From NCBI GenBank assembly GCA_964472395.1, contig CAYYMM010000003.1, positions 13,662-77,661 of the forward strand: a stretch of 64,000 nucleotides of DNA, written 5' to 3'. The DNA comes from an uncultured bacterium. Its GTDB lineage: Bacteria > CSSED10-310 > CALFER01. A program made the translations under genes and the position numbers. Positions 3,513 to 53,742 of this stretch are shown in pieces (positions within the stretch are counted from its first letter, which is position 1; the number at the start of each line of letters is the position of its first letter). The notes under the pieces were generated by a model, which searched no databases, was not told where the DNA came from, and saw nothing but the letters and a program-made list of their open reading frames with translations.

Positions 3513-3531
3513 GTCATTGATTTCTATGAAG

Positions 3532-3617: not shown

Positions 3618-3690
3618 TGAGCGCAGAAGGATTCGAACCTTCGACCCACGGCTTAAAAGGCCGTTGCTCTACCAACTGAGCTATGCGCCC
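3618..3690 (-). tRNA. tRNA-Lys (anticodon TTT)
   Basis: Reverse complement reads GGGCGCATAGCTCAGTTGGTAGAGCAACGGCCTTTTAAGCCGTGGGTCGAAGGTTCGAATCCTTCTGCGCTCA. Anticodon loop CTTTTAA, canonical D- and T-loops. Confidence 0.9.
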
Positions 3691-26502: not shown

Positions 26503-27510
26503 CTAGGACTTTATCAGCCCCATGATCTGCTTCATATCCAGCGTTTTCGATTTCGCCTGAATATCACTCATGTGCAGCGACTGCAGACTCTTCCCCTTCT
26601 GCAGCATCGACGCGAACACGGCCTTGAGCTGATTGCCGTCAATCTTCCGTCCGCCCGCATAATACTGCTTGGCGACATTCCCGAGCGCATACGTCGTCGC
26701 AAACGACACCGACGATCCGACCGCCGCGCTCCCCAGGCCTCCCAGCAGCCCGCCGCCCACGGTCCTCAGCAGCCCGCCGAACAGCTTCCTCCCCATCTGC
26801 TCGATGTACTGCCCGGTCAAACCGATCCCGAGCGTCGCCGCGAAATCCTTGATGTGCCCACGGTCCAACTCGTAATTGAACGCCTTGCCGATCTGATAGA
26901 CCATCTTCATCTGGAGGGGTAAAATGGCCATTGTCGCGAGCGACTGAGGCAGCAGTTCGAGAGCGCCACAGAGAATCGAATAATGAAGGATCGAGGCATC
27001 GAGCGGCGATCCCTCGACGGTTTCCGTCGCGGACTGCGGTGCCGTGATGGTCGGCGACGCGGTATCGATCGGTGCTTCGGCGATCGCCCGGGCGTCCTGC
27101 TCATACGCCTTCGATGCCTCGGCGTCCAACCCCATTGCACGCCGCAACTCCTCGACAAATTGCGCCTCCGGATCGCTCTGCGCGCCATCGGCGTTGCAGA
27201 TCCCGACCGCCATCTCGAAAACTGCCTGGCGCACGGCTTTCTCCGGAATATCCCCGACGATTTCGGCCAGCGTCCGCTTTTTCAACAGCGTTTCATGATA
27301 CAGATCCCGGATCTCCAGTTCGTTGGTTTCACCAAAAGTCGCCGTAATCCGACGGATTTCCGCCTGTTCGCGTTCATCGTTCACTCCGTCGGCCAACGCC
27401 GCCATGTAACAGATGCTCAGTATTGCACGTTCCTGTGGATTCATGATGCCTCCTTCCGCGTGTTCTTCGAAATCATATCGCAGTTCAGAGCCCCGCTCAA
27501 CGATCTTCAT
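26503..27510 (-). CDS. TerB-like (tellurite-resistance/co-chaperone fold) N-terminal domain protein with Gly-rich C-terminal region
   Basis: ERAILSICYMAALADGVNDEREQAEIRRI...PEAQFVEELRRAMGLD resembles the TerB fold. The C-terminal GGLLRTVGGGLLGGLGSAAVGSS part is uncharacterised. Confidence 0.5.
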   Translation of the reverse strand: MKIVERGSELRYDFEEHAEGGIMNPQERAILSICYMAALADGVNDEREQAEIRRITATFGETNELEIRDLYHETLLKKRTLAEIVGDIPEKAVRQAVFEMAVGICNADGAQSDPEAQFVEELRRAMGLDAEASKAYEQDARAIAEAPIDTASPTITAPQSATETVEGSPLDASILHYSILCGALELLPQSLATMAILPLQMKMVYQIGKAFNYELDRGHIKDFAATLGIGLTGQYIEQMGRKLFGGLLRTVGGGLLGGLGSAAVGSSVSFATTYALGNVAKQYYAGGRKIDGNQLKAVFASMLQKGKSLQSLHMSDIQAKSKTLDMKQIMGLIKS

Positions 27511-30500
27511 CCCCTCCCCGCCCGCACCGCGGCGATCAGCTTCAGGATCAGTTTGCCATACCGTTTCATGAGCGCGGGACCGACGCCCGCCACTCCACCG
27601 AGTTCCTCTTCGGTCAGAGGCTGACGCGCGGCCAGCGCATCGAGCACCTGGTTGCTGAAGATGCGGAAGGCCGGAACTCCCAGGCGACGCGACTCATCGA
27701 GCCTCCATTGCCTGAGTGCCGCATGCACGCTTGCGTCGATCCGCACCGCCGCCGTCCGCCGTTCGACTGGCGCTGTGGTCCGGGATCGAGCGGTTCTCGG
27801 GTTTCTGCCGGATACCGCGCCGGACGGCAGCGCGGGCGCGGTCCGGGACGTTTTCGCGGTTTTTCTGCGCTTCGATGCACGCTTCGCGGTCTGCTTTCTT
27901 GGGTGCGTCAGTTCGATCCCACCCACATCAGCCTGCGTGAGTTCGCGTCCGAGCTTCGCCAGAGCGATCCGCTTGTAGTGAATCGTTTCGCCTTCCTTTT
28001 CGAAGGTCTGCTCGGAAATGCTCACGATCTGATGTCTCGACAGACTGCTCAGAAGCTGTTCCATCTCGTTCCGGACGACGGGATGCGATTCCGAGAGACT
28101 CTTGTGGAGTTGTCCCGCGGTGAGACTGCCCTTGCGTCTGAGTTCACTGACGATGGCCCATATCAGGACTGCCTCGTCCGCATCGGGCGCTCTGCGGGCG
28201 GACGCGACCTGGTCCTGCGGCGCACACACATCGCAGACGCCACAGGGCCCCTCACGGTCGTCCATGTCGCCGAAATGCCGGATCAGCGCCTGCATGCGGC
28301 AGCCCGAACCTTCGGCGAACCGGCTCATTTCCTTGAGCTGAGCCTGGCGGAACGCACGCTGCTCGGCATACGCGAACGTCCAGCCCGCACTGCCGGCCCG
28401 GAACCGGTCATCACCCTCGACGATCGCTCCGCTGTGAATCCAGAGTTTCTCGATCGCATTGTCGAACACCTCGGCATCGATGCGCGTCGCCGCAAGAATC
28501 TCGTCGCGCGTCCGGAACTCCTCACCCAGCGCGGTGAAGATGCGCTCGAGAATCGCGGTTTCGGGGTAATTTTTCTGGAAGAGAAAATCCTGAATGCGCT
28601 GATCGGCATAGGAATGAAACAGAATCGCGCGCGACGGCAGCCCGTCCCGCCCCGCCCGGCCGATTTCCTGATAATAGCCCTCGATGCTCCCCGGCAGCGC
28701 GGCGTGAATGACGGTGCGGATGTCGGGTTTGTCGATCCCCATTCCGAAAGCGATGGTCGCGACGATCACATCGAGTCGTCCTTCGAGGAAGGCAGTCTGA
28801 ACCGCATTCCTCCGGGTGGGCGTCATCCCGGCATGATAGACATCCGCGGAAAAATCGCGGTTGAGGTGTTCCGCGAGCCACTCCGCGTTGCGCCGGGTAG
28901 CCGCATAGACGATCGCGGGGCGGCGCGAGGGGTCGGAGAGGATGGCGCGGGCCGCATCGAGACGCTCGTCGACGGGCCTCCCGACAATCTCGACACCGAT
29001 GTTTGTCCGGCGGAATCCGTGAATGAAACGGCGGGGCGACGGCATCCCGAGCAAGGTCACGATGTCGTCCTGAACGCGGGGGGTGGCGGTGGCCGTCATG
29101 GCGATCACGGGCGCCGAGCGGAACTCGGGGAGACGTTCGCCGAGCATCCGGTAGTCCGGGCGGAAATCGTGCCCCCATTGCGAAATGCAGTGCGCTTCGT
29201 CGACGACGATGAGGCTCGGCGGGTGCTGCTGCAACCGGTGGATGAAGCCCTGAAGCGACAGGCGTTCAGGCGCGATGAACAGATACTGCAACTCACCGGA
29301 TGCGTAGCGATTCATGATCGCATCGTATTCCGATCGTTTTTTGCCCGAATGCACGGCGTCGGATCTCAGTCCCAGCGCGGCGAGCTTGCCGGATTGATCC
29401 TCCATCAGCGCGATCAGAGGGCTGATCACGAGCGCCGACCCGCCTCGGATCAGGGCCGGCAACTGGTAGCAGAGCGATTTGCCCATGCCGGTCGGCATCA
29501 CGAGCAGCGCGTCGGTCCCGCCGATCACGGCCTCGCAGACGGCCTTCTGATACGGGCGGAATGCCGGATAACCGAAGTAATGAGACAGAGCGGTTTCCAG
29601 TGTCGGGGAGTCCGGAGGTAGGGATGGCGGCGCAGGAGACGGTTTTGGTGAGGAAACGGCAAGAGTCACGCTGGGGACGGCCGTTTCGATCGGCAACATG
29701 GGCTGCGTGGCGCTCGGGACAACCGCAGCAATCGCAGGCCGAGGCGCAGCGGCATGCGTGAAAATCCCCCTCACGATGTCCCGCACGTAGGTCTCGATGT
29801 CGCTCATGAATCGATCGAACGGTTCGGCGCCCTTTTCCATGCGCTTGAGCTTATACTCCCAGTCACCGGTCAGTTCCGGACTCCTGACGGAAGGATGCAC
29901 CGTTTCGATCAGCCGGATCCCCTTGTCCGTCGCGGAGAGGCTCTTGCCGTCACGCCGGATGAACTCGCGTTTGATCAGCGTTTCGATGATCGCGGCGCGG
30001 GTCGCGGGGGTGCCGAGTCCCCGTTCTCGCATCGCATCGGAGAGATTCCGGTCATCGAGCGTTTTCCCGGCCGTTTCCATGGCGGTCAGCAGGGTCGCAT
30101 CGGTGAGTCTCTGCGGAGGTCTCGTTTCCTTCTCGACCGCTTCGACCTTCAGAATCGACTGCGATTGCCCCTCAACTAAGGAAGACGGGAGCGAGGGCGC
30201 CTGATCGGAGTCTTTTCGTGCTTTCAATTCCAGAACTTTCCAGCCTTCCTGGCGGACCAGCGTTCCGGATGAGTGAAAGCGATCGGTGAGAGGCTCGGAG
30301 GCAACGTCACTCGTTGAAATCACATCGGTGATGACGGTCGTCTCGAGCGCGATGTGGGGCGGCAGCCAGGCGCACAGAAACCGTCGGCAGATCAGGTCAT
30401 AGAGTTTGAGTTGATCGGCGGTCAGAGTGGCCCGGTCCGCCCGGGTCGGAGTCGGGATGATCGCATGATGATCCGACACTTTGGTGTCATCGACGAACCG

Positions 30501-31640
30501 GTCCGGGATGGGGGGCGCCGGTTCATCGAACGGCCAGTGCGGGCGGTAGTGCGGAGCGACGACGGCGATCACCGGTTCGAGCGTACGGGCGATATCCGTC
30601 GAGAGATGACGCGAGTCGGTGCGGGGATAGCTGATGAGTTTTTTCCCCTCATACAGTTCCTGGGCGATGTCCAGAGTCTTCTGAGCGCTGAAACCGAACA
30701 GACGGTTCGCATGTCGCTGCAGTTCGGACAGGTCATACAGCAGTGGAGGGGCAAACGTGCGCGTTCGCGACGTCAGGGATGCGACGGTGGCTCGACCGGT
30801 TCGGACCCGCGACGCGATGCGCTCGACGAGATCCCGATCGAAGGGCAGGCGCGAGGCATCCCGGAGCGGGTCCTGAGACGTTCCGGTTCGTTTCCGGCGT
30901 TCGGTTTCCGAAAACCAGGTGCCTCGGTATACATCTGTCGTTCTATCCGCATATAGGATCATTTCGGGACGAAAATCCACGATGATCTCGAAGTATTTTT
31001 CAGGCTTGAAGTTCCGGATCGCCAGTTCCCGCTCGACGATCATCGCAAGCGTCGGAGTCTGGACACGGCCGACGGACACGAGATCGTTGCCCCGGATCGT
31101 GTAGGCGCGGGAGAAGTTCATGCCGACCAGCCAGTCGGCGCGGCTGCGGGCGTGGGCGGAACGCGCGAGATTGTCATAGTCGGACGAGGGTTTGAGCGTA
31201 TCGAAACCGCGGCGGATGGCGGCAGGGGTCAGCGATGAGATCCAGAGCCGTCGGACGCGTTTTTTGCATTTTGCGGCTTCGTAGATGTACCGGAAGATCA
31301 GCTCGCCCTCGCGCCCTGCATCCGTCGCGCAGATGATCTCGGAGACATCCTTCCGGTTCATGATCTGACGGACGATGTTGAACTGCTGGGCGGTTTTCTC
31401 GATGACGACCACCGGCCAGTCCGGCGGGATCATGGGGAGCGTCGCGCGGGACCAGGTTTTCCACGAGGCGTTGATCTGATGGGGTTCGGGCAGGGTGACG
31501 AGATGTCCGATGGCCCAGGTGACGATGTATCCGTTTCCTTCGAGGGCACCGGATGCTCCATCGAGTTTTTTCGTGGCACCGAGACAATCCGCGATGTCAC
31601 GGGCGACAGACGGTTTCTCGGCAACGACAGCGACAGGCAT
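27507..31640 (-). CDS. Topoisomerase III (type IA) - RecQ helicase fusion protein, 1377 aa
   Basis: aa 1-628: Toprim (VAEKPSVA, ICATDAGREGE) and topo IA core with active-site LISYPRTDSRHL (Tyr338). aa 629-680: Pro/Ser/Ala linker. aa 681-1377: RecQ DEAH helicase (YPAFRPYQ, MPTGMGKSLCYQLPAL, VVDEAHCISQWGHDFRPDY), RQC zinc module (GSGCRMQ...GPCGVCDVC) and C-terminal HRDC. No stop between the modules. Confidence 0.85.
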   Translation of the reverse strand: MPVAVVAEKPSVARDIADCLGATKKLDGASGALEGNGYIVTWAIGHLVTLPEPHQINASWKTWSRATLPMIPPDWPVVVIEKTAQQFNIVRQIMNRKDVSEIICATDAGREGELIFRYIYEAAKCKKRVRRLWISSLTPAAIRRGFDTLKPSSDYDNLARSAHARSRADWLVGMNFSRAYTIRGNDLVSVGRVQTPTLAMIVERELAIRNFKPEKYFEIIVDFRPEMILYADRTTDVYRGTWFSETERRKRTGTSQDPLRDASRLPFDRDLVERIASRVRTGRATVASLTSRTRTFAPPLLYDLSELQRHANRLFGFSAQKTLDIAQELYEGKKLISYPRTDSRHLSTDIARTLEPVIAVVAPHYRPHWPFDEPAPPIPDRFVDDTKVSDHHAIIPTPTRADRATLTADQLKLYDLICRRFLCAWLPPHIALETTVITDVISTSDVASEPLTDRFHSSGTLVRQEGWKVLELKARKDSDQAPSLPSSLVEGQSQSILKVEAVEKETRPPQRLTDATLLTAMETAGKTLDDRNLSDAMRERGLGTPATRAAIIETLIKREFIRRDGKSLSATDKGIRLIETVHPSVRSPELTGDWEYKLKRMEKGAEPFDRFMSDIETYVRDIVRGIFTHAAAPRPAIAAVVPSATQPMLPIETAVPSVTLAVSSPKPSPAPPSLPPDSPTLETALSHYFGYPAFRPYQKAVCEAVIGGTDALLVMPTGMGKSLCYQLPALIRGGSALVISPLIALMEDQSGKLAALGLRSDAVHSGKKRSEYDAIMNRYASGELQYLFIAPERLSLQGFIHRLQQHPPSLIVVDEAHCISQWGHDFRPDYRMLGERLPEFRSAPVIAMTATATPRVQDDIVTLLGMPSPRRFIHGFRRTNIGVEIVGRPVDERLDAARAILSDPSRRPAIVYAATRRNAEWLAEHLNRDFSADVYHAGMTPTRRNAVQTAFLEGRLDVIVATIAFGMGIDKPDIRTVIHAALPGSIEGYYQEIGRAGRDGLPSRAILFHSYADQRIQDFLFQKNYPETAILERIFTALGEEFRTRDEILAATRIDAEVFDNAIEKLWIHSGAIVEGDDRFRAGSAGWTFAYAEQRAFRQAQLKEMSRFAEGSGCRMQALIRHFGDMDDREGPCGVCDVCAPQDQVASARRAPDADEAVLIWAIVSELRRKGSLTAGQLHKSLSESHPVVRNEMEQLLSSLSRHQIVSISEQTFEKEGETIHYKRIALAKLGRELTQADVGGIELTHPRKQTAKRASKRRKTAKTSRTAPALPSGAVSGRNPRTARSRTTAPVERRTAAVRIDASVHAALRQWRLDESRRLGVPAFRIFSNQVLDALAARQPLTEEELGGVAGVGPALMKRYGKLILKLIAAVRAGRG

Positions 31641-31674
31641 GTCCGTTACTCCTCACTTCCCGAGATCCACCGGT

Positions 31675-33673: not shown

Positions 33674-35923
33674 TTATTCCCAACCGAATTCAGCCGAACC
33701 AAACTGCCCGATCAGAATGTGAACGGCGGGATCGACCAGCGCGGCATAAAACCTGATTCCTTGAGCAGCTCCGACATTGGATGGCCATGAAAACGATGGC
33801 AGAACCTCTACATCGGTCACGTCTTCCGGGAATGAAGGATACTGAGCCAGGTAGGAATCGAACTCCTGCGTGAATGTCGGACCCCAGAAGTAACTGCCGA
33901 ACACATCCAGCAACACAAGGAGCGGGAAACCGGTCAGGACATCGCCGGTGTTGTTGCAGAAGTGTGCCGTGCAGGTGAATATGTCGCCGGCATGGAAGAC
34001 TGATTGCGACAGATCCAGCGTGACACCCATCTGATCGCAGATGTCGGGATTGGAATGACGGTACACGAAGGTTTCGACCGTCACTTCGCCATGACCGCCT
34101 CCGAAGATGGTGGTGCACTTCTGCGCGGAATCATAAACCATCGCATGTCCGTAATACGGAGCGGCTCGTCCACCTTTAGGCTCGATCAGATACCAATCAT
34201 ACCCGTCCCATTCCCAAGTTTCATCGAAACCGGGTTCCAGGTTTTGAACGCCGCCGTGCATGACAACACGACAACGACGTTGATCAAATGTTAACCTCAG
34301 TTCCTTTCTTCGTGCAGGATTGGTCGTGGCCGGTTCGATCCGCGTCCAGTCGACTCCATCGTATTCCCAAGTCTTGTCGTAGTATCCGTTCTCTGCGCAC
34401 CCTCCGAATAGAACCGCGACGCCTCGACAGCTGTCGAATGCCATTCCAAAGCCCCAGAGCCCCGGTGGATGATGATCCGGAAACACCTGATACCATGTGC
34501 TCCCATCATACTCCCATGTCTCGTCCTCCCACTCCTGATAGGGGGGATCGTTATAGTCGGCAGATACTCCTCCGAACAACATGAGCCTGCCTCGGATGGA
34601 ATCATAGACCATTGTAGCACTGGATCTCGGACCGGGAACGACGGGAGGTGTCAGCTCGTTCCATGTCTGATCTCGAAACACCCACATTTTATCATTGAAA
34701 TAGGCGGGGCCGTCCCATTTCCTTCCGCCGTACAAAACGATCCCATCGTGATCGGCAAAATAGGCCATACAATGACGCGAAACCTGCCCGGGATTGGGTG
34801 ACAGATTGTAACAGGACCACGTTTGTCCATCCCATAGATACGTATCGGTTGACATGCATGAGGATTCAACTCCTCCGTATAGCACAGTTGTTTGTGATGA
34901 GGGATCGTATTCCATGTTGTGTCCGCCGAGATCAGGCGGATAATAGGGGTCTGGCGTTACATAGGTCCAGTCCACTCCGTCGTAGAACCAAGTGTCACCA
35001 AACAATTCTGGAGTGTGTGATCCACCGAACAGCATTAGTTGCCGTGATCCGGCATCCCATGTCGCTGCAAAACCTGATCGACCAGATGGTTTATGTGGTG
35101 GGTTCATTTCGTGCCATTGAACACCGTCGAATTCCCACGTGTCATCATAATTTCCGTTGCCGCTGAATAGAACAATCACAGAACGGTCCGGATCGTAAAC
35201 AATACGTTGCACTATCCGTACGGGTGGTCGAGGAGGACTTACCTCCGGATTTTCCCACTGCGAACCATCCCAGTACCATAACTCCAATTTCCCATTAAAG
35301 TCTAACAGAACTACCACCTTCTCGATATCGGGATTATAGATCATCCCAGAAATAAACATCGCCGGAGGCCAAGGATTCGATTTCGGAATTTGATGCCATT
35401 CATCCTGATCCCATTCCCAAAGGTCGTCGAGTGCATCCTCTGAAGTCCCCCCGAAAACACAGATTACATCTCGATTACTGTCATAAGCCAAACTGTAATA
35501 TGTCCACTTCGAAGGAAGGAAATCGCTCTCGTCGATCAAAGACCAATCAGAGTAAGTCCATTCCCAAATTTGAAACAAACTATCCGGATATCTACTACCG
35601 AGCAGAAGAATTCGATTATGCATGGAATCGAACAATAAAGCTGGTTCTCCCCAAAAAACATCAGGAATGTGTTCTCTCAATCGAAAATTCCATCTAGTTC
35701 CATCCCATTCCCACGTATCACTAAGATGGCTTCCGGAGTGTCCTCCAAAAAGCAGCACTGTGCCTGTCTCAGGGTTATAGCATATGCTGGAACCGCTTCG
35801 TGGAGTCAACGGCTTCCCGATCTGCACCCATTCCATCGAGGAGGAGATTACATGGTCCGGATGTGCAAAGCACAAACATGAAAGCAAGATGATTAAACCA
35901 GTATTGGTTTTTACACTGCTCAT
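33674..35923 (-). CDS. Secreted Kelch/galactose-oxidase-like beta-propeller repeat protein, paralog 1, with conserved ~120-aa C-terminal domain
   Basis: GAGGAGG RBS then MSSVKTNTGLIILLSCLCFA signal peptide. About 11 Kelch-like blades (LLFGG..., WEWDG/WEYDG). C-terminal block CDQMGVTLDL...FGWE. Confidence 0.8.
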   Translation of the reverse strand: MSSVKTNTGLIILLSCLCFAHPDHVISSSMEWVQIGKPLTPRSGSSICYNPETGTVLLFGGHSGSHLSDTWEWDGTRWNFRLREHIPDVFWGEPALLFDSMHNRILLLGSRYPDSLFQIWEWTYSDWSLIDESDFLPSKWTYYSLAYDSNRDVICVFGGTSEDALDDLWEWDQDEWHQIPKSNPWPPAMFISGMIYNPDIEKVVVLLDFNGKLELWYWDGSQWENPEVSPPRPPVRIVQRIVYDPDRSVIVLFSGNGNYDDTWEFDGVQWHEMNPPHKPSGRSGFAATWDAGSRQLMLFGGSHTPELFGDTWFYDGVDWTYVTPDPYYPPDLGGHNMEYDPSSQTTVLYGGVESSCMSTDTYLWDGQTWSCYNLSPNPGQVSRHCMAYFADHDGIVLYGGRKWDGPAYFNDKMWVFRDQTWNELTPPVVPGPRSSATMVYDSIRGRLMLFGGVSADYNDPPYQEWEDETWEYDGSTWYQVFPDHHPPGLWGFGMAFDSCRGVAVLFGGCAENGYYDKTWEYDGVDWTRIEPATTNPARRKELRLTFDQRRCRVVMHGGVQNLEPGFDETWEWDGYDWYLIEPKGGRAAPYYGHAMVYDSAQKCTTIFGGGHGEVTVETFVYRHSNPDICDQMGVTLDLSQSVFHAGDIFTCTAHFCNNTGDVLTGFPLLVLLDVFGSYFWGPTFTQEFDSYLAQYPSFPEDVTDVEVLPSFSWPSNVGAAQGIRFYAALVDPAVHILIGQFGSAEFGWE

Positions 35924-36037
35924 CCCGAACCTCCTCTCTGCTATAGAGAATAACCCCAACATTTAGTCAGATCAAATCAGAACATGAATGCCGACTGGGA
36001 AAAAAGCACGGGCACGGTGACCTCCCGTCCGAACCAT

Positions 36038-36080
36038 GATTTGTGCAAATCAAAAGTTTAACTTTCATTTTGCACAAATC
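36038..36080. promoter_or_regulatory. Perfect 12-bp inverted repeat (GATTTGTGCAAA-N19-TTTGCACAAATC), candidate operator
   Basis: Lies 18 nt upstream of the ATPase ATG at 36098, in the divergent promoter region shared with Kelch paralog 1. Confidence 0.4.
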
Positions 36081-36097
36081 TGCCGTATTCTCAGATC

Positions 36098-37291
36098 ATG
36101 ATCAATCGAGATATATCCAAAGAATTGATTCGATCCGCCACGGAGTATCCCGTGGTGACCATTCTCGGACCGCGCCAGTCGGGCAAGACCACCCTGACCC
36201 GAATGACGTTCCCCAATAAGCCCTATTTTTCTCTTGAGGATCCTGATGTCCGGATGGCGGCCGAGGCCGACCCGCGGGGCTTTCTTGCACAAATGGAGAA
36301 CGGCGGTATTTTGGACGAGGTGCAACGCCTCCCGATTCTGCTTTCCTATATCCAGGGGATGGTCGACAAAACCACGCAACGCGGTCGTTTCATCCTGACT
36401 GGAAGCCATCAACCGCAGCTCCATGAGGCTATCAGCCAGTCGTTGGCGGGCCGCACGGCCATCTTGGTTCTATGGCCGTTTTCCCTTCGTGAGATTCGCC
36501 AGTACGATTCGGTCCGAGACCCCTTCGATTTAATCCATCAGGGCTTTTTCCCCAGGCTTCACGAGGAGAATCTGGAAGCGCGCCGGTTTTTCAACGGCTA
36601 CCTGCAGACCTACGTTGAGAGGGATGTCCGCGCCTTGATTCAGTTGCGTGATTTATCGCTGTTTCAGAAATTTCTCACCCTTTTGGCCGGACGGGTGGGA
36701 CATATCGTCAATCTCGCTTCGCTTGGCAATGATGTCGGCGCTTCCGGAACGACGATCAGAAACTGGCTATCCGTTCTGAAGGCATCCTATGTTGTGTTTG
36801 AACTTCCCCCGTTTTTCGAGAATGTTCATAAACGTGTGATCAAGTCGCCAAAAATCTATTTCACCGACGTTGGCCTCGCCGCGTTTCTACTCGGCATCCA
36901 TACATCGGAGCACGTTTCACGTGACCCTTTGCGCGGAAATCTTTATGAGAACCTCATCATCGCCGAAATCGTGAAAAGCGCATTGAACCGTGGAATCAGA
37001 CCTGAGATCTATTTCTTCCGTGATTCCCACGGCAACGAGATCGATCTGCTGGTCAAGGAAAAAGGTGTGCTCACGCCGGTTGAGATCAAGTCTGCTGCGA
37101 CATTTACCACGGATTATCTCCGGCAAATCGAAATGTTTCGAACACTGGGCATCCGGCGTGTTGCGCCTGGTGCGATCCTTTATAACGGCGAGCAAACATT
37201 CAATGTGCGAGGCATCCGTGTCATCAATCCATTCCAGGTGGAAGACATCTGGCAGACCTTGACCGAATTCCCTGAACAAGAAACCACATGA
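36098..37291 (+). CDS. AAA-family ATPase with DUF4143 C-terminal domain
   Basis: Walker A GPRQSGKTT. Architecture typical of AAA_14 + DUF4143 ATP-binding proteins, which are often in mobile or defence neighbourhoods. Confidence 0.7.
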   Translation: MINRDISKELIRSATEYPVVTILGPRQSGKTTLTRMTFPNKPYFSLEDPDVRMAAEADPRGFLAQMENGGILDEVQRLPILLSYIQGMVDKTTQRGRFILTGSHQPQLHEAISQSLAGRTAILVLWPFSLREIRQYDSVRDPFDLIHQGFFPRLHEENLEARRFFNGYLQTYVERDVRALIQLRDLSLFQKFLTLLAGRVGHIVNLASLGNDVGASGTTIRNWLSVLKASYVVFELPPFFENVHKRVIKSPKIYFTDVGLAAFLLGIHTSEHVSRDPLRGNLYENLIIAEIVKSALNRGIRPEIYFFRDSHGNEIDLLVKEKGVLTPVEIKSAATFTTDYLRQIEMFRTLGIRRVAPGAILYNGEQTFNVRGIRVINPFQVEDIWQTLTEFPEQETT

Positions 37292-37421
37292 TTTCGAACC
37301 GAAAATCGAGTGTTTCGATGCCGGTCAGACCGATCAGCGGCAACTCCTTCACCGCGCTGATCAGCCTGAGGCGCCAGTTTCCCCTATATTCGCCGCTGGA
37401 TTGTTCAGCGCCTATGGATTG

Positions 37422-39686
37422 TTATTCCCACCCGAACTCAACCATATCCAGCTGACCGATCAGAATGTGAACAGCAGGATCGACCAGCGCGGCATAGAAC
37501 CTGATTCCTTGAGCAGCTCCGACATTGGAGGGCCAGGAGAATGACGGGAGCACCTCCACATCGGTGATCCCTTCCGGAAATGAAGGATACCGGGCCAGAT
37601 AGGAATCGAACTCCGGAGTGAAGGTCGGACCCCAGAAGTAACTCCCAAATACATCCAGCAACACGAGGAGTGGGTAGCCGGTCAGAACATCGCCGGTGTT
37701 GTTGCAGATGTGCGCCGTGCAGGTGAACGTGTCACCGGCATGAAAGAGTGATTGCGACAGATCCAAGGTCACACCCATCTGATCGCAGATGTCGGGATTG
37801 GAATGACGGTACACGAAGGTTTCGACGGTGATTCCTTGCTGTCCGCCGCCATAGATCATTGAGCATTTCCTGGCTGAATCATAGATCATGGCGGTTGAAT
37901 GATAGGGAGCTGCGCGTCCACCCGTGGGCTCGATCAGATACCAGTCATACCCATCCCATTCCCATGTTTCATCGAAACCGGGCTCCAGGTTTTGAACACC
38001 GCCATGCATGACAACTCGGCATCGGTGTTGATCGAATGTGAATCCAAGGCTCTTACGTCGTGCAGGATTTGTTGTGGCCGGTTCGATCCGGGTCCAGTCG
38101 ACTCCATCGTATTCCCAGGTCTTGTCATAGTATCCGTTCTCAGCGCACCCTCCGAACAGAACCGTGACGCCTCGACAGCTGTCGAATGCCATTCCAAAGC
38201 CCCAGAGCCCTGGAGGATGATGATCCGGATACACCTGATACCAGGTTGTCCCATTATACTCCCACGTCTCGTCTTCCCACTCCTGCTCATAATAATAAGG
38301 TGGCTCGTAATAGAATGCAGACACACCTCCAAACAAGACGAGTCGTCCCCGAATGGAATCATAGACCATAGCAGCATTGGATCTCGGACCTGGAACGGCG
38401 GGAGGTGTCAGCTCATTCCAAGTCTGATCTCGGAAGACCCACATCCTATCAGAGGATAAGTCTGGCCCCTCCTGAGCATAACCACCATATAGAACGACAC
38501 CATTGAGAGAAGTCATATAAGCCATACAATGTGACCGAATCAAACCTGGAGTGACTGGCAAGTTGATTCCTGTCCAGAGTTGACTATCCCAAATAAATGT
38601 CTCGGTTGACATATATGAGGATTCAACTCCTCCGTATAGCACAGTTGTTTGCGCTAAGGGATCATATGCCATGTTGTGTCCACCAAGATCAGGCGGATAG
38701 TAGGGGTCCGGTGCTACAGACGTCCAGTCCACGCCATTATAAAACCAAGTGTCTCCGAAGTTTTCCCCTGCAACATTTCCTCCTCCGAAAAGCATGACTC
38801 GATTCGTTCGAGCATCCCATGTTGCTGAGTAATTTGATCGAGCGGAGGGTTTGTGCGGTGGGTTTATCTCGTTCCATTGAACACCGTCGAATTCCCACGT
38901 GTCATCATAGTTGCTTTCTCCGCTGAACAAAACAATTACCGAGCGTTCCGGATCGTAAACAATATTCTCCGCCCACCGTACGGGTGGTCGAGGAGGACTC
39001 ACCTCCGGATTTTCCCACTCCGAACCATCCCAATTCCAAAACTCAAATATTCCATTGTATTCTAACAGAACCACCACCTTCTGGATATCAGAATTGTAAA
39101 TCATCCCCGTACCAATCTTATCTGGAGGCCAGGGATTCGATCTCGGAATCCGATGCCATTCCTCCTGATCCCATTCCCAAAGGTCAGGGTGCTCAAACAA
39201 TGTATATCCATCAAACACGCAGATTACATTTCGATGACTATCATACGCAAAACTGTAGTATGAGCAGTCTTCAGGAAACGAGCTATTCTCATCGATCAGT
39301 GACCAGTCCGTACCAGTCCATTCCCAGATCTGGAACACGCTGTCAGATATTCGTCTTCCGAACAGTAAAATGCGATTGTTCAGTGTGTCGTAAACCATGG
39401 AAGCATTTCCCCAGAGTTGGTTCGGACTATGCTCCGTCAAACGAAAATTCCATTTTACTCCGTCCCATTCCCAGGTATCAGTAAGTTCGGATCCCGTATT
39501 TCTTCCGCCAAAAAGCAATACTGTGTTTGACTCAGGATTATAGCAGATCTCTAAACCACTTCGTGGAGTCAGCGGCTTCCCGATCTGCACCCATTCCATC
39601 GAGGAGGAGATTACATGGTCCGGAAGTGCAAAGCACAAACATGAAAGCAAGATGATCCATCCAAGTATGTTCTTGACCGTACTCAT
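37422..39686 (-). CDS. Secreted Kelch-like beta-propeller repeat protein, paralog 2, with conserved C-terminal domain
   Basis: GAGGAGA RBS then MSTVKNILGWIILLSCLCFA. Same architecture as paralog 1. Long nucleotide blocks identical to paralog 3. Confidence 0.8.
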   Translation of the reverse strand: MSTVKNILGWIILLSCLCFALPDHVISSSMEWVQIGKPLTPRSGLEICYNPESNTVLLFGGRNTGSELTDTWEWDGVKWNFRLTEHSPNQLWGNASMVYDTLNNRILLFGRRISDSVFQIWEWTGTDWSLIDENSSFPEDCSYYSFAYDSHRNVICVFDGYTLFEHPDLWEWDQEEWHRIPRSNPWPPDKIGTGMIYNSDIQKVVVLLEYNGIFEFWNWDGSEWENPEVSPPRPPVRWAENIVYDPERSVIVLFSGESNYDDTWEFDGVQWNEINPPHKPSARSNYSATWDARTNRVMLFGGGNVAGENFGDTWFYNGVDWTSVAPDPYYPPDLGGHNMAYDPLAQTTVLYGGVESSYMSTETFIWDSQLWTGINLPVTPGLIRSHCMAYMTSLNGVVLYGGYAQEGPDLSSDRMWVFRDQTWNELTPPAVPGPRSNAAMVYDSIRGRLVLFGGVSAFYYEPPYYYEQEWEDETWEYNGTTWYQVYPDHHPPGLWGFGMAFDSCRGVTVLFGGCAENGYYDKTWEYDGVDWTRIEPATTNPARRKSLGFTFDQHRCRVVMHGGVQNLEPGFDETWEWDGYDWYLIEPTGGRAAPYHSTAMIYDSARKCSMIYGGGQQGITVETFVYRHSNPDICDQMGVTLDLSQSLFHAGDTFTCTAHICNNTGDVLTGYPLLVLLDVFGSYFWGPTFTPEFDSYLARYPSFPEGITDVEVLPSFSWPSNVGAAQGIRFYAALVDPAVHILIGQLDMVEFGWE

Positions 39687-40081
39687 CCTGATCTCCTCTC
39701 TGCCATCGAGAATAACCCGATCATTTATGCAGATCAAATCAGAACATGAGATGATCAGACATGCAAGGAAAAGTCATAGGATATGACCTCTACGTTGTTT
39801 TCTATCGGGACTTGACTGAGGATCACGGTCGAACGCATCTCGTAACGCTCTTCGATCACGATGCGTTTCTTTCTGACATGCCGACACGTCGGACACCAGC
39901 CGCGCTGTCGAATCTGGTGGCCACGTAGAATCGGAATTACTTACCAACCGGGGAGGAAGCGGTCGTCTATTCCTGATCGAATTCTATGTGTTGTTTTCAG
40001 GTGCTCGCGAACCCGGAATCACTGCTCGCATTTTACCGGAATTGAAAGTGCTCGCGGCCGGAATATGCACGAAAAGAGAGA

Positions 40082-40504
40082 TCAGTGGTTTCGGGAGTTT
40101 GCGAGGACCTGATTGAGTTTCAGGTCTGAGATCCTATTGAAATGACGAAGGTTTCCGGTGATAAGTTCCAAATCATGTTCGATGGCTGTAGCTGCAATCT
40201 GAATATCTGCGTCAGGGAGGATTACACCAGTATCTTCAAGATTAGCTCGGATTTTACCAAAAACCTTCGCTGTGATGATGTCGAAAGGTAAAACGGTGAC
40301 AGCAGGTAAAACACGTTGCTCGATATTGGTCAGGTGTCGTTCGCGATCACGGGCGCGATATGCACCTTTGTATAACTCACCTATTACAACAGCACTCGTG
40401 AATTGCTCTTCACGCGCAACTTTCATAATCCATTTCACATAAGCTGTTGCAGGGTGTGGGCGGAGAAGTTCCGAAATTGCATCCGTATCAAAGAGGAATG
40501 CCAT
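40082..40504 (-). CDS. vapC: VapC-type PIN-domain toxin
   Basis: MAFLFDTDAISELLRP... PIN fold with conserved acidic residues (FDTD, ...DADIQIAATAIEHDLELITGN). Confidence 0.8.
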   Translation of the reverse strand: MAFLFDTDAISELLRPHPATAYVKWIMKVAREEQFTSAVVIGELYKGAYRARDRERHLTNIEQRVLPAVTVLPFDIITAKVFGKIRANLEDTGVILPDADIQIAATAIEHDLELITGNLRHFNRISDLKLNQVLANSRNH

Positions 40505-40787
40505 TTTTTTGTTCCAGATCCGGAGTATCACGCTGACCCTGTCGAGGAGAAGCGCTGAGGATAGAAACCAGCTCTTCGCTGTTTTCCCAACCCCCAGCAA
40601 TACTGGCAAGTCCACTCCCTGGTCCTGCTTTTCTCAAACGCTCAAGATGTTCGAGGTCACTCGGGCTGACAAGAGCAGCGACAGGTTTACCATGTCTGGT
40701 TATCAGCACAGCATTGCCTGCTTGAACTTTGCGAATGCATTCTGAAAAAGTTGCTTTGGCCTCAGCCACGGAAATGTTCTTCTCCAT
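40488..40787 (-). CDS. Phd/YefM-family antitoxin
   Basis: AAGGAGG RBS. ISVAEAKATFSECIRKVQAGNAVLITRHGKPVAALVSPSDLEHLERL matches Phd/YefM. 17-nt overlap with vapC. Confidence 0.75.
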   Translation of the reverse strand: MEKNISVAEAKATFSECIRKVQAGNAVLITRHGKPVAALVSPSDLEHLERLRKAGPGSGLASIAGGWENSEELVSILSASPRQGQRDTPDLEQKNGIPL

Positions 40788-40803
40788 AATCGGCCTCCTT
40801 TAT

Positions 40804-40825
40804 GGTCATTATAACCATTATGACC
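40804..40825. promoter_or_regulatory. Imperfect palindrome GGTCATTATAACCATTATGACC, candidate TA operator
   Basis: GGTCAT...ATGACC arms immediately upstream of the antitoxin RBS; typical position for TA autoregulation. Confidence 0.35.
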
Positions 40826-41147
40826 TAAATATCAAGAATATGATTGAGACAATCGTATCACTTGCGTTGCTCACAACCTCGGAGCTTCCTACACATCGGG
40901 GATTCGCGCGTCGGCACCCAATGATCGATCGTCATGGTAGCCTTCATTCCAATGCGGATTGAACACAACCTTCAAATATGCAGCTCGTTTGAAGAATAAC
41001 ACGAAGAATCAATCCACCCGCCTTGCCAATAGGGTTCGAAACGGACACATTCCAGACTCGCAGAATCAAGTTCAATAGTGACGTCAATGTCGTGTATGAG
41101 CTCATGGACTGAGGAAATGGCGAACAACAACGTGGAGGTTTCGTCTG

Positions 41148-43394
41148 TTATTCCCACCCGAACTCAACCATATCCAACTGCCCGATCAGAATGTGAACGG
41201 CGGGATCGACCAGTGCGGCATAAAACCTGATTCCTTGAGCAGCTCCGACATTGGATGGCCAGGAGAATGACGGGAGCACCTCCACATCGGTGATCCCTTC
41301 CGGAAATGAAGGATACCGGGCCAGATAGGAATCGAACTCCGGAGTGAAGGTCGGACCCCAGAAGTAACTCCCAAATACATCCAGCAACACGAGGAGTGGG
41401 TAGCCGGTCAGAACATCGCCGGTGTTGTTGCAGATGTGCGCCGTGCAGGTGAACGTGTCACCGGCATGAAAGAGTGATTGCGACAGATCCAAGGTCACAC
41501 CCATCTGATCGCAGATGTCGGGATTGGAATGACGGTACACGAAGGTTTCGACCGTCACTTCGCCATGACCGCCTCCGAAGATGGTGGTGCACTTCTGCGC
41601 GGAATCATAAACCATCGCATGTCCGTAATACGGAGCGGCTCGTCCACCATTCGGCTCGATCAGATACCAGTCATACCCGTCCCATTCCCATGTTTCATCG
41701 AAACCGGGCTTCAGGTTTTGAACACCGCCATGCATGACAACACGACAACGACGGTGATCAAATGCTAACCTCAGATCCTTCCTTCGTGCAGGGTTGGTTG
41801 TGGCCGGTTCGATCCGGGTCCAGTCGACTCCAGTGTACTCCCAGGTCTTGTCATAGTATCCGTTTTCAGCACATCCTCCGAACAGAACCGTGACGCCTCG
41901 ACAACTGTCAAAAGCCATCCCAAAGCCCCAGAGTCCCGGAGGATGATGATCCGGAAACACCTGATACCATGTGCTCCCATCGTACTCCCACGTCTCGTCT
42001 TCCCACTCCTGATAGGGGGGATCGTTATAGTCGGCAGACACGCCTCCGAACAGCACGAGCTTCCCTCGGATGGAATCATAGGCCATCTCAGCGCCAGCTC
42101 TCGGACCGGGAACGACGGGAGGTGTCAGCTCGTTCCATGTCTGATTGCGGAACACCCACATTTTATCATTGAAATAGGCGGGGCCGTCCCATTTCCTTCC
42201 GCCATACAATACGATCCCATCGTGATCGGCAATGTAAGCCATACAATGAACGGAAATCTGACCGGGATTGGGTGACAAACTGTAACCAAACCACGTTTGC
42301 CCATCCCACAGATATGTCTCGGTTGACATGTATGAGGATTCAACTCCTCCGTATAGCACAGTTATTTGTGATGAGGGATCGTATGCCATGTTGTGTCCGC
42401 CGAGATCAGGCGGATAATAGGGGTCTGGCGTTACATAGGTCCAGTCCACTCCGTCGTAGAACCAGGTATCTCCGAATTTCTCCCCTGCATCATTCCCTCC
42501 ACCGAAGATCATGACTCGATTCGTTCGAGCATCCCACGTCGATGCGTAACCTGATCGAGCGGAGGGTTTGTGGGGTGGATCGACCTCGTTCCATCGCGTG
42601 CCGTTGAATTCCCAAGTTTCTTCACTCCAACTCTGACCACCATACATAACCATAGAGGATCGAATCGGATCGAATTCTATTCTCGAACCGCTTCGTTCAG
42701 TCGGATGCGGACCAGATATCTCCGGTTTCTCCCAAACAGAGCCATCCCAATACCAGGGGTCTATCTGTCCGTTGTAATTATCAAAGGCAATCACTCTATG
42801 GATCTCTGAGTTATACGCCAAACCGGCTAATGATAATCCTTGTGGCCAAGGGGTCGATTTCGGTATCTGATGCCATTCGCTTTGATCCCACTCCCAAAGT
42901 TCATATCTGGAAGTGTCTGTATGCCCTCCGAACAAACAGATGACATCACGCTCTTCGTCATATACCGACCGAAAGTAAACCCATCTCAAAGGGAGCAAAT
43001 CGCTCTCGTCGATAAGTGTCCAGTCATTATCTGCCAATTGCCAGATTTGAAATTGTTGCCCGGGATCGACATATCCAGTTAACAGTAACCTATTATTCAA
43101 GGAATCATACAGTAACGCTGGTAGTCCGTAGAAATCTTTGGGCGTGTGAGGTGTCGAGATAAAATTCCACCGCACACCATCCCATTCCCATGTTTCAATG
43201 TCTTCAACGCCTACAGAGTATCCACCGAATAGAAACACTGAGTCGGTTGCTGGATTATAGCAAATGCTGGAACCATATCGTGTAATCAACGGCTTTCCGA
43301 TCTGCACCCATTCCATTGATGATGAGAAAGTACTCTCCGGTATCGACACACACATCCATATCAGCAAAATGACGGGTCCTGCATTCGGCTTCAC
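41148..43394 (-). CDS. Secreted Kelch-like beta-propeller repeat protein, paralog 3 (mosaic of paralogs 1 and 2), with conserved C-terminal domain
   Basis: GTG start with signal peptide KPNAGPVILLIWMCVSIPESTFS. 5' coding blocks nearly identical at nucleotide level to paralog 2 (41246..41556 vs 37520..37830) and to paralog 1 (41521..41645 vs 34046..34170). Confidence 0.8.
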   Translation of the reverse strand: MKPNAGPVILLIWMCVSIPESTFSSSMEWVQIGKPLITRYGSSICYNPATDSVFLFGGYSVGVEDIETWEWDGVRWNFISTPHTPKDFYGLPALLYDSLNNRLLLTGYVDPGQQFQIWQLADNDWTLIDESDLLPLRWVYFRSVYDEERDVICLFGGHTDTSRYELWEWDQSEWHQIPKSTPWPQGLSLAGLAYNSEIHRVIAFDNYNGQIDPWYWDGSVWEKPEISGPHPTERSGSRIEFDPIRSSMVMYGGQSWSEETWEFNGTRWNEVDPPHKPSARSGYASTWDARTNRVMIFGGGNDAGEKFGDTWFYDGVDWTYVTPDPYYPPDLGGHNMAYDPSSQITVLYGGVESSYMSTETYLWDGQTWFGYSLSPNPGQISVHCMAYIADHDGIVLYGGRKWDGPAYFNDKMWVFRNQTWNELTPPVVPGPRAGAEMAYDSIRGKLVLFGGVSADYNDPPYQEWEDETWEYDGSTWYQVFPDHHPPGLWGFGMAFDSCRGVTVLFGGCAENGYYDKTWEYTGVDWTRIEPATTNPARRKDLRLAFDHRRCRVVMHGGVQNLKPGFDETWEWDGYDWYLIEPNGGRAAPYYGHAMVYDSAQKCTTIFGGGHGEVTVETFVYRHSNPDICDQMGVTLDLSQSLFHAGDTFTCTAHICNNTGDVLTGYPLLVLLDVFGSYFWGPTFTPEFDSYLARYPSFPEGITDVEVLPSFSWPSNVGAAQGIRFYAALVDPAVHILIGQLDMVEFGWE

Positions 43395-44593: not shown

Positions 44594-46267
44594 TCATGGT
44601 GTCGCGGCCCCACCCTGCCATGCGTGAAGCCATCGATGCGCCTCCTCGGCCAGCGACTTCCCGACCTCATCCTCCTCGCTGACCACGAAGTCCGCTCCGG
44701 CATCACGGAGCGATTCCCGGAAAATGTGATACCGCGCCCGCACCATGATCCGGGATTCAGGCGCCAGAAACCGACATAACTCGATAATTTTCCGGTTGAC
44801 AGTCGGATCCGGGATCGTGATCAGAATGGCGCAGGCATGCCGAATGTCCAGATGCTCCAGAACCTCGGGGTTCGTCGCATCTCCCGCATGAAACTCCACT
44901 CCGAGCGACTCGGCATATTGAGCGTTCCTGAGATTCGAATCGAGGACCACGAGATTCTGCTGATGTTCCGGCACGAGACTTGAGACTACACGCTGAGCGG
45001 ACGGTCCGAATCCGATGATCACCACCCGCGGAAGATCCGGAATCCTGCCGGGATGGTGCGTGTTCCGCTCGGATTCCTGCCGGCGCTGCCGGAAACGGAG
45101 AGTCTGAAGTCCATGAGCCAGGTGAGGGGCCATCCGCACGAGATACGGTGTCAGGATGAACAGCACGACCGTCACCGACATGAGGAGCATGGCGAGATCA
45201 TCATCGAGAACACCATTCTTCTGCGCAATGCGGATCAGCACGAACGAAAATTCACCGATCTGCGCCAGACACAAACCCGTGGCCAGCGACACGCCGCGAC
45301 GGAACCCGAACCCCCTCGCAATCAGTGTGATGATGAGCATCTTTCCCAGAACGATGGCGGGCACGGTCAGCGCGACCCGGCTGAGATTGTTCCAGATCCA
45401 GAGGGGATCGGTGAGCATCCCGACACTGCTGAAGAACAAGGTCAAAAACAGCACACGCAAGGCGGAGATATCCGCCCGAATCTGAACTGACAGGGAACAT
45501 TCAGCCAGAAGCATGCCCGACACGAATGCGCCGAACGATGGACTGAGTCCGACTTCATGCGACAGCCAGGACGCTCCGAGTGCAGTGACCGAAGCGAACA
45601 GGACGGTGAGTTCGCGGTTGCGCATCCAGCTCCGCATCTGAATGATCCTCGGAACGATATGCATGAAAAGCAGATACAGCAGAACAATCATCACTGCCGC
45701 TGCTCCGAGTTTTCGGACGATCAGATGGCCGACCGGATTCGAAGTGGAGTTCAAGCCGATCGAGGACACCAGAAGGAGCATCGGGACCACGGCAATGTCC
45801 TGCAGGAGCAGAATGCCGACGGCATTGCGACCGAAGACGCTGTCAAGTTGCGTCGTATCGATCAGAATCCGCACGACAAAAGCCGTACTCGACAGGGTGA
45901 TGACCGCACCGACCACGAGCGACACTCGCCAGTCAAAGTTCGAAAGATACGCAATCAGATCGGCGATTCCCCAGGTGATCAGCACCTGAAGCGTTCCGCC
46001 GATAAAGGTAATCGGGCCGATGCGGATCAGTTTCGAGAGCGAAAACTCAAGTCCGATCGAGAACAGCAGCAGGGTGACGCCCAGTTCGGCAATGGCCTCG
46101 ACACGATCCGCCGACCCGATCAGGTCGAATCCATGCGGCCCGATCAGGATGCCCGCCAGGATGTACCCGATGACGGCACTCTGGCGAAACCGTTCTGCAA
46201 GCGTGCCCAGAAAGAGCGCGCTGGTCAGGATCACGAGAATGCCGATGATGTTGTCCCAGAGGTACAT
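44594..46267 (-). CDS. CPA2-family cation:proton antiporter (KefB/KefC-like) with C-terminal TrkA-N/RCK domain
   Basis: About 12 TM helices with the Na_H_Exchanger signature. C-terminal VVIIGFGPSAQRV Rossmann-like RCK domain. Confidence 0.85.
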   Translation of the reverse strand: MYLWDNIIGILVILTSALFLGTLAERFRQSAVIGYILAGILIGPHGFDLIGSADRVEAIAELGVTLLLFSIGLEFSLSKLIRIGPITFIGGTLQVLITWGIADLIAYLSNFDWRVSLVVGAVITLSSTAFVVRILIDTTQLDSVFGRNAVGILLLQDIAVVPMLLLVSSIGLNSTSNPVGHLIVRKLGAAAVMIVLLYLLFMHIVPRIIQMRSWMRNRELTVLFASVTALGASWLSHEVGLSPSFGAFVSGMLLAECSLSVQIRADISALRVLFLTLFFSSVGMLTDPLWIWNNLSRVALTVPAIVLGKMLIITLIARGFGFRRGVSLATGLCLAQIGEFSFVLIRIAQKNGVLDDDLAMLLMSVTVVLFILTPYLVRMAPHLAHGLQTLRFRQRRQESERNTHHPGRIPDLPRVVIIGFGPSAQRVVSSLVPEHQQNLVVLDSNLRNAQYAESLGVEFHAGDATNPEVLEHLDIRHACAILITIPDPTVNRKIIELCRFLAPESRIMVRARYHIFRESLRDAGADFVVSEEDEVGKSLAEEAHRWLHAWQGGAATP

Positions 46268-53582: not shown

Positions 53583-53742
53583 CGCTTCTCCTTTGATCTA
53601 CGTGTGTCATTCGCATTCTCATCCTCATTCGCCGGTTTGTCAATGGACAACATGACTGAACACACCCCTCATGCCGCCAAACTTTCATTGAGAACACACG
53701 TAATTCCAAATGAATGGTCTGTCATCCTTCCGGGAGGTGTCT

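Follow-up and report, generated by a model that had tools for sequence, protein, structure and literature searches.

The locus described here raises two questions: whether a topoisomerase III (Topo III) and a RecQ helicase are really encoded as one protein, and whether the two enzymes would then work as one unit. It lies on the minus strand of a 64,000-nucleotide stretch of DNA (the 64-kb window; contig CAYYMM010000003.1) from an uncultured bacterium, for which an original prediction, made from the letters of the sequence, had described a single reading frame of 1377 amino acids (aa). The listing of open reading frames (ORFs) agreed with this description. One uninterrupted 1377-aa ORF with an ATG start was found to consist of a Topo III, a linker and a RecQ helicase, with the Topo half at the N-terminus (Table 1), and every Pfam domain counted in it exceeded its curated cut-off. 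The window belongs to a metagenome-assembled contig, and Pro- or GC-rich linkers are error-prone, which would favor an artefact in which a sequencing error in the linker had merged adjacent topB and recQ genes. In addition, the database entry P0122, an apparent stand-alone protein, turned out to be a fusion that the end of its contig cuts off within the linker. Against such an artefact, a protein identical to the window fusion (P0001) was present in both NCBI and ENA, and a 13.7-kb ENA contig from a separate assembly (L069) coded for the identical 1377-aa protein. A sister metagenome-assembled genome (MAG) from another sequencing run (L001) contained the syntenic locus at 80-98% nucleotide identity, and its fusion ORF of 1399 aa was 94% identical in protein sequence to the window copy and in frame throughout. 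These two copies differed in length only through an indel of 22 codons in the second linker, which kept the frame; no indel was found in the inter-module linker of L001, where the frame was kept. Furthermore, at least 120 clusters from NCBI, ENA, JGI and Logan encoded the fusion, some of them on contigs of 2-5 Mb, and the stand-alone relatives of either half had no nearby partner gene to which they could have been joined. The contig with the identical protein, the L001 copy and the homologous fusions thus excluded a missed stop, a frameshift and a chimeric join, the three weak points that the original prediction had itself named. An artefact of assembly or annotation was rejected on the second assembly, the syntenic sister genome and the homologous fusions, and its probability is negligible. 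The fusion is a genuine chromosomal gene.

The orthologous fusions came from a homologue search of 5.8 billion proteins, in which the 120 best matches (clusters) were taken as the family set. All 120 were 1302-1627 aa in length, all carried both domain sets, and the order was always Topo followed by RecQ; most showed ~50% identity to the window protein across 99% of its length. Orthologues of this kind, which had been proposed as a check on the prediction, were therefore found in at least 120 clusters. The matches with a named organism were almost all from Acidobacteriota (Bryobacteraceae, Ca. Solibacter and Thermoanaerobaculia), with one Pseudomonadota MAG, and the named hosts belonged to soil and sediment lineages of the Acidobacteriota, not to thermophiles. 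The window fusion itself grouped with two clusters only (P0002, 63% identity, and P0003, 68%), apart from the Acidobacteriota majority. The lineage from which the window comes was poorly sampled, as also seen for its antiporter (44594..46267), which had one relative at 77% identity and named relatives at ≤~50% from many phyla.

The N-terminal half of the protein is a topB-type Topo III. The NCBIfam models NF005829 ("DNA topoisomerase 3") and TIGR01056 (topB) scored 666.7 bits against a cut-off of 597 and 571.5 bits against 515.75, respectively, and residues 6-613 of the fusion were aligned to residues 5-593 of E. coli Topo III (TopB) with an E-value of ~1e-97. The four-domain toroid was recovered in the AlphaFold model with a predicted local distance difference test score (pLDDT) of ~90 over residues 1-628. 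Comparison of this model with E. coli Topo III (2o19 and 1d6m) by Foldseek gave template-modelling (TM) scores of 0.78-0.85 and a root-mean-square deviation of 4-5 Å over ~640 columns. The original prediction of a complete type IA topoisomerase was borne out, since the Toprim domain, the Topoisom_bac core and the catalytic Tyr338 were all found; the tyrosine is not missing, and its codon is the one at which it had been placed. Residue conservation was scored on an alignment of the 120 family members, in which E8, D107 and Y338 were invariant (120/120), E111 was present in 119 of the 120 members, and H391 and H392 were also invariant. Residues 522-540 were strongly conserved in the fusion family as well; they correspond to the segment at ~502-520 of E. 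coli Topo III, the Topo III-specific "decatenation loop" of that enzyme. The second Asp of the canonical DxD motif was Gly109 (DAGRE) in all 120 fusion members, and E. coli Topo III has DPDREG at the aligned position. The DAG variant was also found in 31 stand-alone Topo III loci, including those of Verrucomicrobia (Chthoniobacterales), Caldisericales and Rhodocyclaceae, and more distant Topo III relatives (Eubacteriales and Treponema) have DADREGE. Because stand-alone Topo III proteins share the DAG variant, DxG is a trait of the source Topo III subclade and not a decay of the fusion.

The C-terminal half was recognized as RecQ by the NCBIfam model TIGR00614 (recQ_fam; 389.5 bits against a cut-off of 219.8), and it was aligned to the RecQ cores of C. 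sakazakii (E 5e-93) and E. coli (E 2e-92) together with their zinc motif. With the two halves matching E. coli Topo III and the RecQs at E ~1e-97 and 5e-93, respectively, chance similarity is excluded. Within the superfamily 2 (SF2) core, the Pfam domains DEAD and Helicase_C covered residues 695-857 and 896-1000. AlphaFold modelled the RecQ half with a pLDDT of 87.3 and a predicted TM score (pTM) of 0.79, and the order of its parts was two RecA-like domains, the zinc helices, a winged helix, a disordered basic linker and the HRDC domain. The best Foldseek matches for this model were RecQ and BLM cores, with E-values of 1e-37 to 1e-35; 573-592 columns were aligned to the RecQ cores (511-516 residues, winged helix included) at E ~1e-37, and BLM cores including HRDC were aligned over ~730 columns. 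As had been claimed from the sequence, the linker was followed by a DEAH core, a zinc module and an HRDC domain, all recovered as Pfam or NCBIfam matches. The claim of an RQC domain held in part: a winged helix was present in the predicted structure (residues 1154-1241), but the Pfam RQC winged-helix model PF09382 gave no match and only sub-threshold matches to winged-helix or helix-turn-helix models were obtained. The RQC winged-helix domain is thus present by predicted fold, not by sequence profile. With the zinc module, the winged-helix fold and HRDC all found, the helicase is not reduced to a domain lacking RQC and HRDC. The signature residues of the helicase were invariant in 120/120 family members; these were F694, R695 and Q698 of motif 0, GxGKS 718-722 (Walker A), DEAH 814-817, the aromatic-rich loop CISQWGHDFRP 818-828, TAT 849-851, QExGRAGRDG 991-1000 of motif VI, and the zinc cysteines C1114, C1133, C1136 and C1139. 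The second linker, between the winged helix and HRDC, was 30-71 aa long across the family and rich in Ala, Lys, Arg and Pro.

The ratios of nonsynonymous to synonymous substitution rates (dN/dS) were calculated by domain between the window fusion and the L001 copy. The values were 0.13 for Topo and 0.12 for HRDC; they were 0.06 for each of the RecQ core, the insertion plus zinc module described below, and the winged helix, and 0.31 for the inter-module linker. The low values in the domains indicate purifying selection on the two modules. Each half is complete and, judged by its conserved catalytic residues, looks catalytically competent.

The RecQ half differed from E. coli RecQ in the region between the helicase core and the zinc cysteines, which contained 85 residues here and 20 in the E. 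coli protein. The additional residues formed a family-specific insertion inside the zinc subdomain, ~60-75 aa in size in this RecQ subfamily, and the only hint to its nature from the sequence was a sub-threshold DprA_WH match (E 0.017). Residues K1065, L1066, W1067, H1069 and G1071 of the insertion were invariant in an alignment of 45 sequences. A HMMER search with residues 1015-1250 against 1.84 billion representatives (E <= 1e-10) returned 392 proteins, which comprised full fusions, truncated fusions and genuine stand-alone RecQs. Among the stand-alone RecQs with the insertion were P0142, located after an HNH gene, and P0159, located after a DTW gene on the opposite strand; the insertion was also noted at L075:6001-8115. 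P0142 and P0159 were 46-49% identical to the window RecQ half and had the same winged helix, pre-HRDC linker and HRDC, but they contained no topoisomerase domain and no topoisomerase gene was found within 6 kb of them. In fused and stand-alone members alike, motif VI and the first zinc Cys were separated by 113-116 residues. The equivalog models for E. coli-type RecQ were missed (TIGR01389, 482.9 against 640.2 bits; NF008279, 394.7 against 1015), in the case of TIGR01389 because of the insertion before the zinc motif. The RecQ half is therefore a RecQ-family member of a separate subfamily that also occurs unfused, and not an E. coli-type equivalog. In a neighbor-joining tree of the RecQ modules, which was star-like and had no support values, fused members were interspersed with unfused ones, and for this reason no conclusion was drawn on a single or multiple origin of the fusion. 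An origin from a precursor operon was considered and rejected, since no recQ was located within 8 kb of the stand-alone Topo III genes and no topoisomerase within 6 kb of the stand-alone RecQ genes. One further protein of the same RecQ subfamily, P0138 (772 aa), showed a Guanylate_cyc match in place of the N-terminal DEAD match; this protein may have arisen through chimerism or mis-assembly, or through a genuine exchange of domains.

How the two halves are held together bears directly on the second question. The inter-module linker agreed in position, length and composition with the 52-aa Pro/Ser/Ala-rich segment described originally. Its pLDDT was 30-37 over residues 630-673, no Pfam match was found in it, and across the family it varied from 33 to 361 aa without sequence conservation. 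One member (P0108, 1627 aa) carried a Zeta_toxin-like (P-loop kinase) domain at residues 780-859 within the linker, which shows that the linker tolerates the insertion of whole domains. The AlphaFold model that covered both modules (residues 1-1200) had a mean pLDDT of 87.9 and a pTM of 0.57, compared with 0.79 for the RecQ half alone, and no PDB chain among the structural matches spanned both halves. The variable, disordered linker and the unfixed orientation in the model therefore point to two autonomous modules on a tether rather than to an integrated machine like reverse gyrase. Accordingly, the description of the protein as a "self-contained machine" overstates the case, and a tethered pair is the better description.

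The fusion is likely to be a tethered single-chain RecQ-Topo III strand-passage enzyme, in which a complete Topo III has been joined to the N-terminus of a RecQ helicase. In such an enzyme, the RecQ module would use its winged-helix and HRDC domains to bind DNA that is branched or gapped, and would unwind the duplex with ATP, exposing single-stranded DNA beside the junction. The tethered Topo III, which needs single-stranded DNA, would cleave one strand through Tyr338, pass another strand and reseal. As a net result, late replication intermediates, precatenanes, hemicatenanes and double Holliday junctions would be unlinked at the expense of ATP, with non-crossover outcome. The covalent tether would stand in for recruitment by protein-protein contacts and would guarantee 1:1 stoichiometry and co-localisation. 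The partnership of RecQ and Topo III is established in reviews for separate proteins, and the same unlinking reactions have been documented for E. coli RecQ and Topo III with single-stranded DNA-binding protein (SSB), for Sgs1-Top3-Rmi1 and for BLM-TOP3A-RMI. For the fusion, we infer the activities, their coupling and the in vivo substrates.

Several observations weigh against this assignment. The DxG variant of the Toprim motif removes one of the canonical Mg2+-binding acidic residues; this is probably tolerated, since the nearest stand-alone Topo III relatives have it too, but it is a caveat for the predicted activity. No fixed interface between the modules was predicted (pTM 0.57), and allosteric coupling is unsupported by the model. 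No conserved neighbor genes hinting at a pathway were found at the four loci compared. The RecQ subfamily occurs without a topoisomerase (P0142 and P0159), and no recQ was found within 8 kb of stand-alone Topo III relatives, for example those of Chthoniobacterales and Paludibacter; the partnership is thus not obligatory in the wider clade.

Part of the same evidence would suit another explanation, in which the two enzymes were fused for co-expression and stoichiometry or by neutral drift and the modules act uncoupled on different substrates; for example, Topo III might decatenate DNA or remove R-loops while RecQ functions in resection in the RecF pathway. A hypervariable and disordered linker that accepts a whole inserted domain, the absence of a confident inter-module interface (pTM 0.57) and the occurrence of each module as a stand-alone protein in related lineages would all be consistent with uncoupled modules. 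However, the fusion has stayed intact between lineages at ~50% identity, with a constant Topo-RecQ order and conserved active sites, whereas frequent decay or splitting would be expected of a neutral fusion. Moreover, the two families joined here form the best documented helicase-topoisomerase partnership. Uncoupled modules are therefore unlikely, although they are not a negligible alternative to the tethered strand-passage enzyme.

The combination of an SF2 ATPase and a type IA topoisomerase in one chain also recalls reverse gyrase, the only well-known natural protein in which an SF2 helicase-type ATPase and a type IA topoisomerase form a single polypeptide, and RecQ unwinding combined with a topoisomerase alters plasmid topology in vitro. 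An activity of this type would mean that ATP hydrolysis drives directional strand passage and introduces supercoils, for example positive ones. In reverse gyrase, however, the helicase-like module is N-terminal and the topoisomerase C-terminal, opposite to the fusion, a contrast that the original prediction had drawn correctly. The model TIGR01054 (rgy) scored 112 bits against a cut-off of 471.7 and matched the topoisomerase part only, and reverse gyrase was not among the 50 best structural matches. The helicase-like module of reverse gyrase is a minimal one, which is not RecQ and has no zinc module, winged helix or HRDC, in contrast to the full RecQ with winged helix and HRDC found here. The linker of the fusion is long, variable and disordered, unlike the tight latch-mediated interface of reverse gyrase, and reverse gyrase is restricted to thermophiles, unlike the fusion, whose named hosts are soil and sediment lineages. 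Supercoiling in the manner of reverse gyrase is thus very unlikely.

The closest functional relatives of the tethered enzyme are the RecQ-Topo III pairs that work as separate proteins. E. coli RecQ and TopB with SSB, a system for strand passage, decatenation and the resolution of converging forks, represent the same two enzyme families with the same reaction, which is predicted for the fusion, and E. coli RecQ has the same zinc cysteines, winged helix and HRDC. The E. coli proteins are separate, whereas those of the fusion are covalently joined; in the place of the basic C-terminal tail that ends E. coli TopB, the fusion has the linker and RecQ. The insertion in the RecQ zinc subdomain and the DxG instead of DxD in Toprim are further differences from the E. 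coli pair. The eukaryotic dissolvasome (Sgs1-Top3-Rmi1 in one form and BLM-TOP3A-RMI1/2 in the other) likewise couples a RecQ helicase physically to a Topo III. Yeast Top3 binds the disordered N-terminus of Sgs1, and the fusion resembles Sgs1-Top3 in that the topoisomerase is located on the N-terminal side of the helicase and is connected through a disordered segment. In the fusion, the physical association of RecQ and Topo III that marks a dissolvasome was found in one polypeptide and in at least 120 clusters. It differs from the eukaryotic complex in being covalent and bacterial and in having a topB-type Topo III, and no oligonucleotide/oligosaccharide-binding (OB) fold or Rmi1-like domain was found in the fusion ORF by Pfam. 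Engineered yeast Top3-Sgs1 fusion proteins were the subject of Bennett and Wang (PNAS 2001;98:11108), in whose work the fusion reportedly was able to stand in for the Top3-binding N-terminus of Sgs1. That construct was man-made, and the window protein would be its natural evolutionary counterpart. The stronger proposal, that the protein is a natural single-chain dissolvasome whose coupled modules far outperform the separated halves in dissolving double Holliday junctions, hemicatenanes and late replication intermediates without an Rmi1- or SSB-type adaptor and which serves as the sole RecQ and Topo III of its hosts, is tentative and somewhat less probable than its opposite.

Membership of a mobile element or of an anti-phage or conflict system would assign the fusion a different role altogether. 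Conjugative elements often carry Topo III genes, and RecQ-like helicases are found in Dpd and other defence systems. The fusion gave a weak match to the NCBIfam model DpdF (216 bits against a cut-off of 550), a PIN/FitA toxin-antitoxin pair adjoined the P0003 gene, IS66 and HEPN/SIR2 genes were located 5-8 kb from the P0092 gene, the P0108 member carried the Zeta_toxin-like insert, and in the window an integrase was located beside two tRNAs, 24 kb from the fusion. By contrast, the neighbors varied by locus and were ordinary chromosomal genes (purH, GrpB, TerB, efflux pumps and sensor kinases). Two scans of viral contigs found no Topo-RecQ fusion; the first returned nothing, and the second, which was alignment-based, returned RecQ-only matches in all 80 loci kept. 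A phage origin was rejected on the basis of these scans. The GC content near the gene was 0.58-0.63, at the upper end of the 0.48-0.63 range of the window and matched elsewhere in it, and the tRNA pair lay between the integrase and the fusion. Because of the ordinary and varying neighbors, the absence of viral fusions and the lack of nearby partner genes, a role in mobility or defence is highly improbable.

The features of the fusion gene and of the gene downstream are listed in Table 1.

Table 1. Coordinates of the fusion gene, its parts and the adjacent gene (positions refer to the 64-kb window, residues to the fusion protein; AF2, AlphaFold2)
Feature	Position	Strand	Details
Fusion gene	27507..31640	-	1377 codons + stop, ATG start; from the ORF listing
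Ribosome-binding site GGAG	31649..31652	-	9-12 nt upstream of the ATG; read off the sequence
Toprim domain	31233..31631	-	residues 4-136; catalytic Glu8 in AEKPS; Pfam PF01751, 49.6 bits
Toprim acidic motif ATDAGREGE	31302..31328	-	residues 105-113; D107, G109, E111
Type IA core, DNA-gate toroid	29805..31178	-	residues 155-612; Pfam PF01131 (Topoisom_bac), E 8.6e-109, 364.7 bits
Catalytic tyrosine Y338 in LISYPRTDS	30627..30629	-	aligned with the ITYPRSD active-site motif of E. coli Topo III
Counterpart of the Topo III "decatenation loop"	30021..30077	-	residues 522-540; aligned to E. coli Topo III ~502-520 with a one-residue gap
Inter-module linker	29601..29756	-	residues 629-680, 52 aa; 14 Pro, 10 Ala, 7 Ser
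RecQ SF2 core	28599..29600	-	residues 681-1014; motif 0, Walker A GMGKS, DEAH, aromatic-rich loop, TAT, motif VI
Family-specific insertion	28386..28568	-	residues 1025-1085; inside the zinc subdomain; helix-helix-helix-beta-beta in AF2, winged-helix-like
Zinc-binding module	28224..28364	-	residues 1093-1139; Cys1114/1133/1136/1139; PF16124 (RecQ_Zn_bind) 36.6 bits, cut-off 25
Winged helix with long beta-hairpin	27918..28181	-	residues 1154-1241; AF2 pLDDT >90, fold match
Second linker, basic	27741..27905	-	residues 1246-1300; 12 Arg, 5 Lys, 10 Ala; pLDDT <50
HRDC	27534..27728	-	residues 1305-1369; PF00570 63.5 bits, cut-off 23.8; helical bundle in AF2
TerB/DUF533 gene	26503..27510	-	downstream; ATG overlaps the fusion TGA by 4 nt (ATGA)

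The surroundings of the gene were those of an ordinary chromosome, with sensor kinases, a MacB/HlyD/OEP efflux system, Kelch-repeat proteins, RNase HII, a GH44 glycosidase, a Peptidase_C25 protein and a cation/proton antiporter, and no second topB- or recQ-like sequence was found within the 64-kb window by tblastn. The ATGA overlap suggests translational coupling of the fusion to the TerB/DUF533 gene, which is probably co-transcribed with it without belonging to the conserved unit. This neighbor was kept in the close relative L001 only; it was absent beside the homologues L070-L072, and these three family members had entirely different neighbors.

Other parts of the window showed features of their own. 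A gene of the tyrosine-recombinase (phage integrase) family at 2310..3509 (+) adjoined a tRNA-Glu (3531..3604, -) and a tRNA-Lys (3618..3690, -), and an Amidoligase_2 gene was located at 813..2000. The segment 813..3690 is probably the edge of an integrated element that runs off the left end of the window. A cluster of genes for large Kelch-repeat/beta-propeller proteins occupied 33674..43394 and 53710..58581, of which the ORFs 37422..39737 and 41148..43394 were scanned; 33674..35962 encoded a 749-aa Kelch protein, as called on L069, and a 1623-aa protein of the window combined Peptidase_C25 with Kelch repeats. Such a Kelch expansion is unusual for a bacterium, and among the 80-98% nucleotide matches to L001 were some between these paralogues. 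The RNase HII homologue at 4102..5172 (+) had an N-terminal extension of ~147 aa without a Pfam match, in an ORF that begins with GTG and whose start is uncertain.

The original prediction did not recognize the protein as a characterized class, and the literature searched agreed with it. No published description of a natural Topo III-RecQ fusion was found in the full-text literature, in which the coverage of subscription journals was limited, and the databases name the members of the family "DNA topoisomerase 3" only. None was found in a 2021 single-molecule review of type IA topoisomerases, in Forterre & Gadelle 2009, in Garnier et al. 2021 or in Valenti et al. 2008. The sequence family is already common in databases, and neither its two parts nor their partnership is new. 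The novelty lies in the covalent union, whose order is the reverse of that in reverse gyrase, together with the insertion in RecQ. The current name conceals half of the protein, and the RecQ subfamily marked by the insertion may merit separate study.

RecQ helicases work together with Topo III in organisms ranging from E. coli to humans, in whom the loss of the complex leads to Bloom syndrome. The physical and mechanistic coupling of the two enzymes is still under debate, above all in bacteria, in which their interaction is thought to be indirect. A fusion of these enzymes would not astonish a specialist, but it offers a clean evolutionary argument for a bacterial unit. Because it is conserved with intact active sites across lineages that are ~50% identical, the fusion provides independent evolutionary evidence for RecQ and Topo III as a unit. 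As a single-chain 1:1 complex that dispenses with the accessory subunits and extensive disordered regions of its eukaryotic counterparts, it would be attractive for cryo-electron microscopy and single-molecule studies of dissolution and decatenation. If the protein does act as a coupled dissolvasome, it would be the first "Rosetta-stone" proof that RecQ and Topo III form an ancient selectable unit in bacteria.

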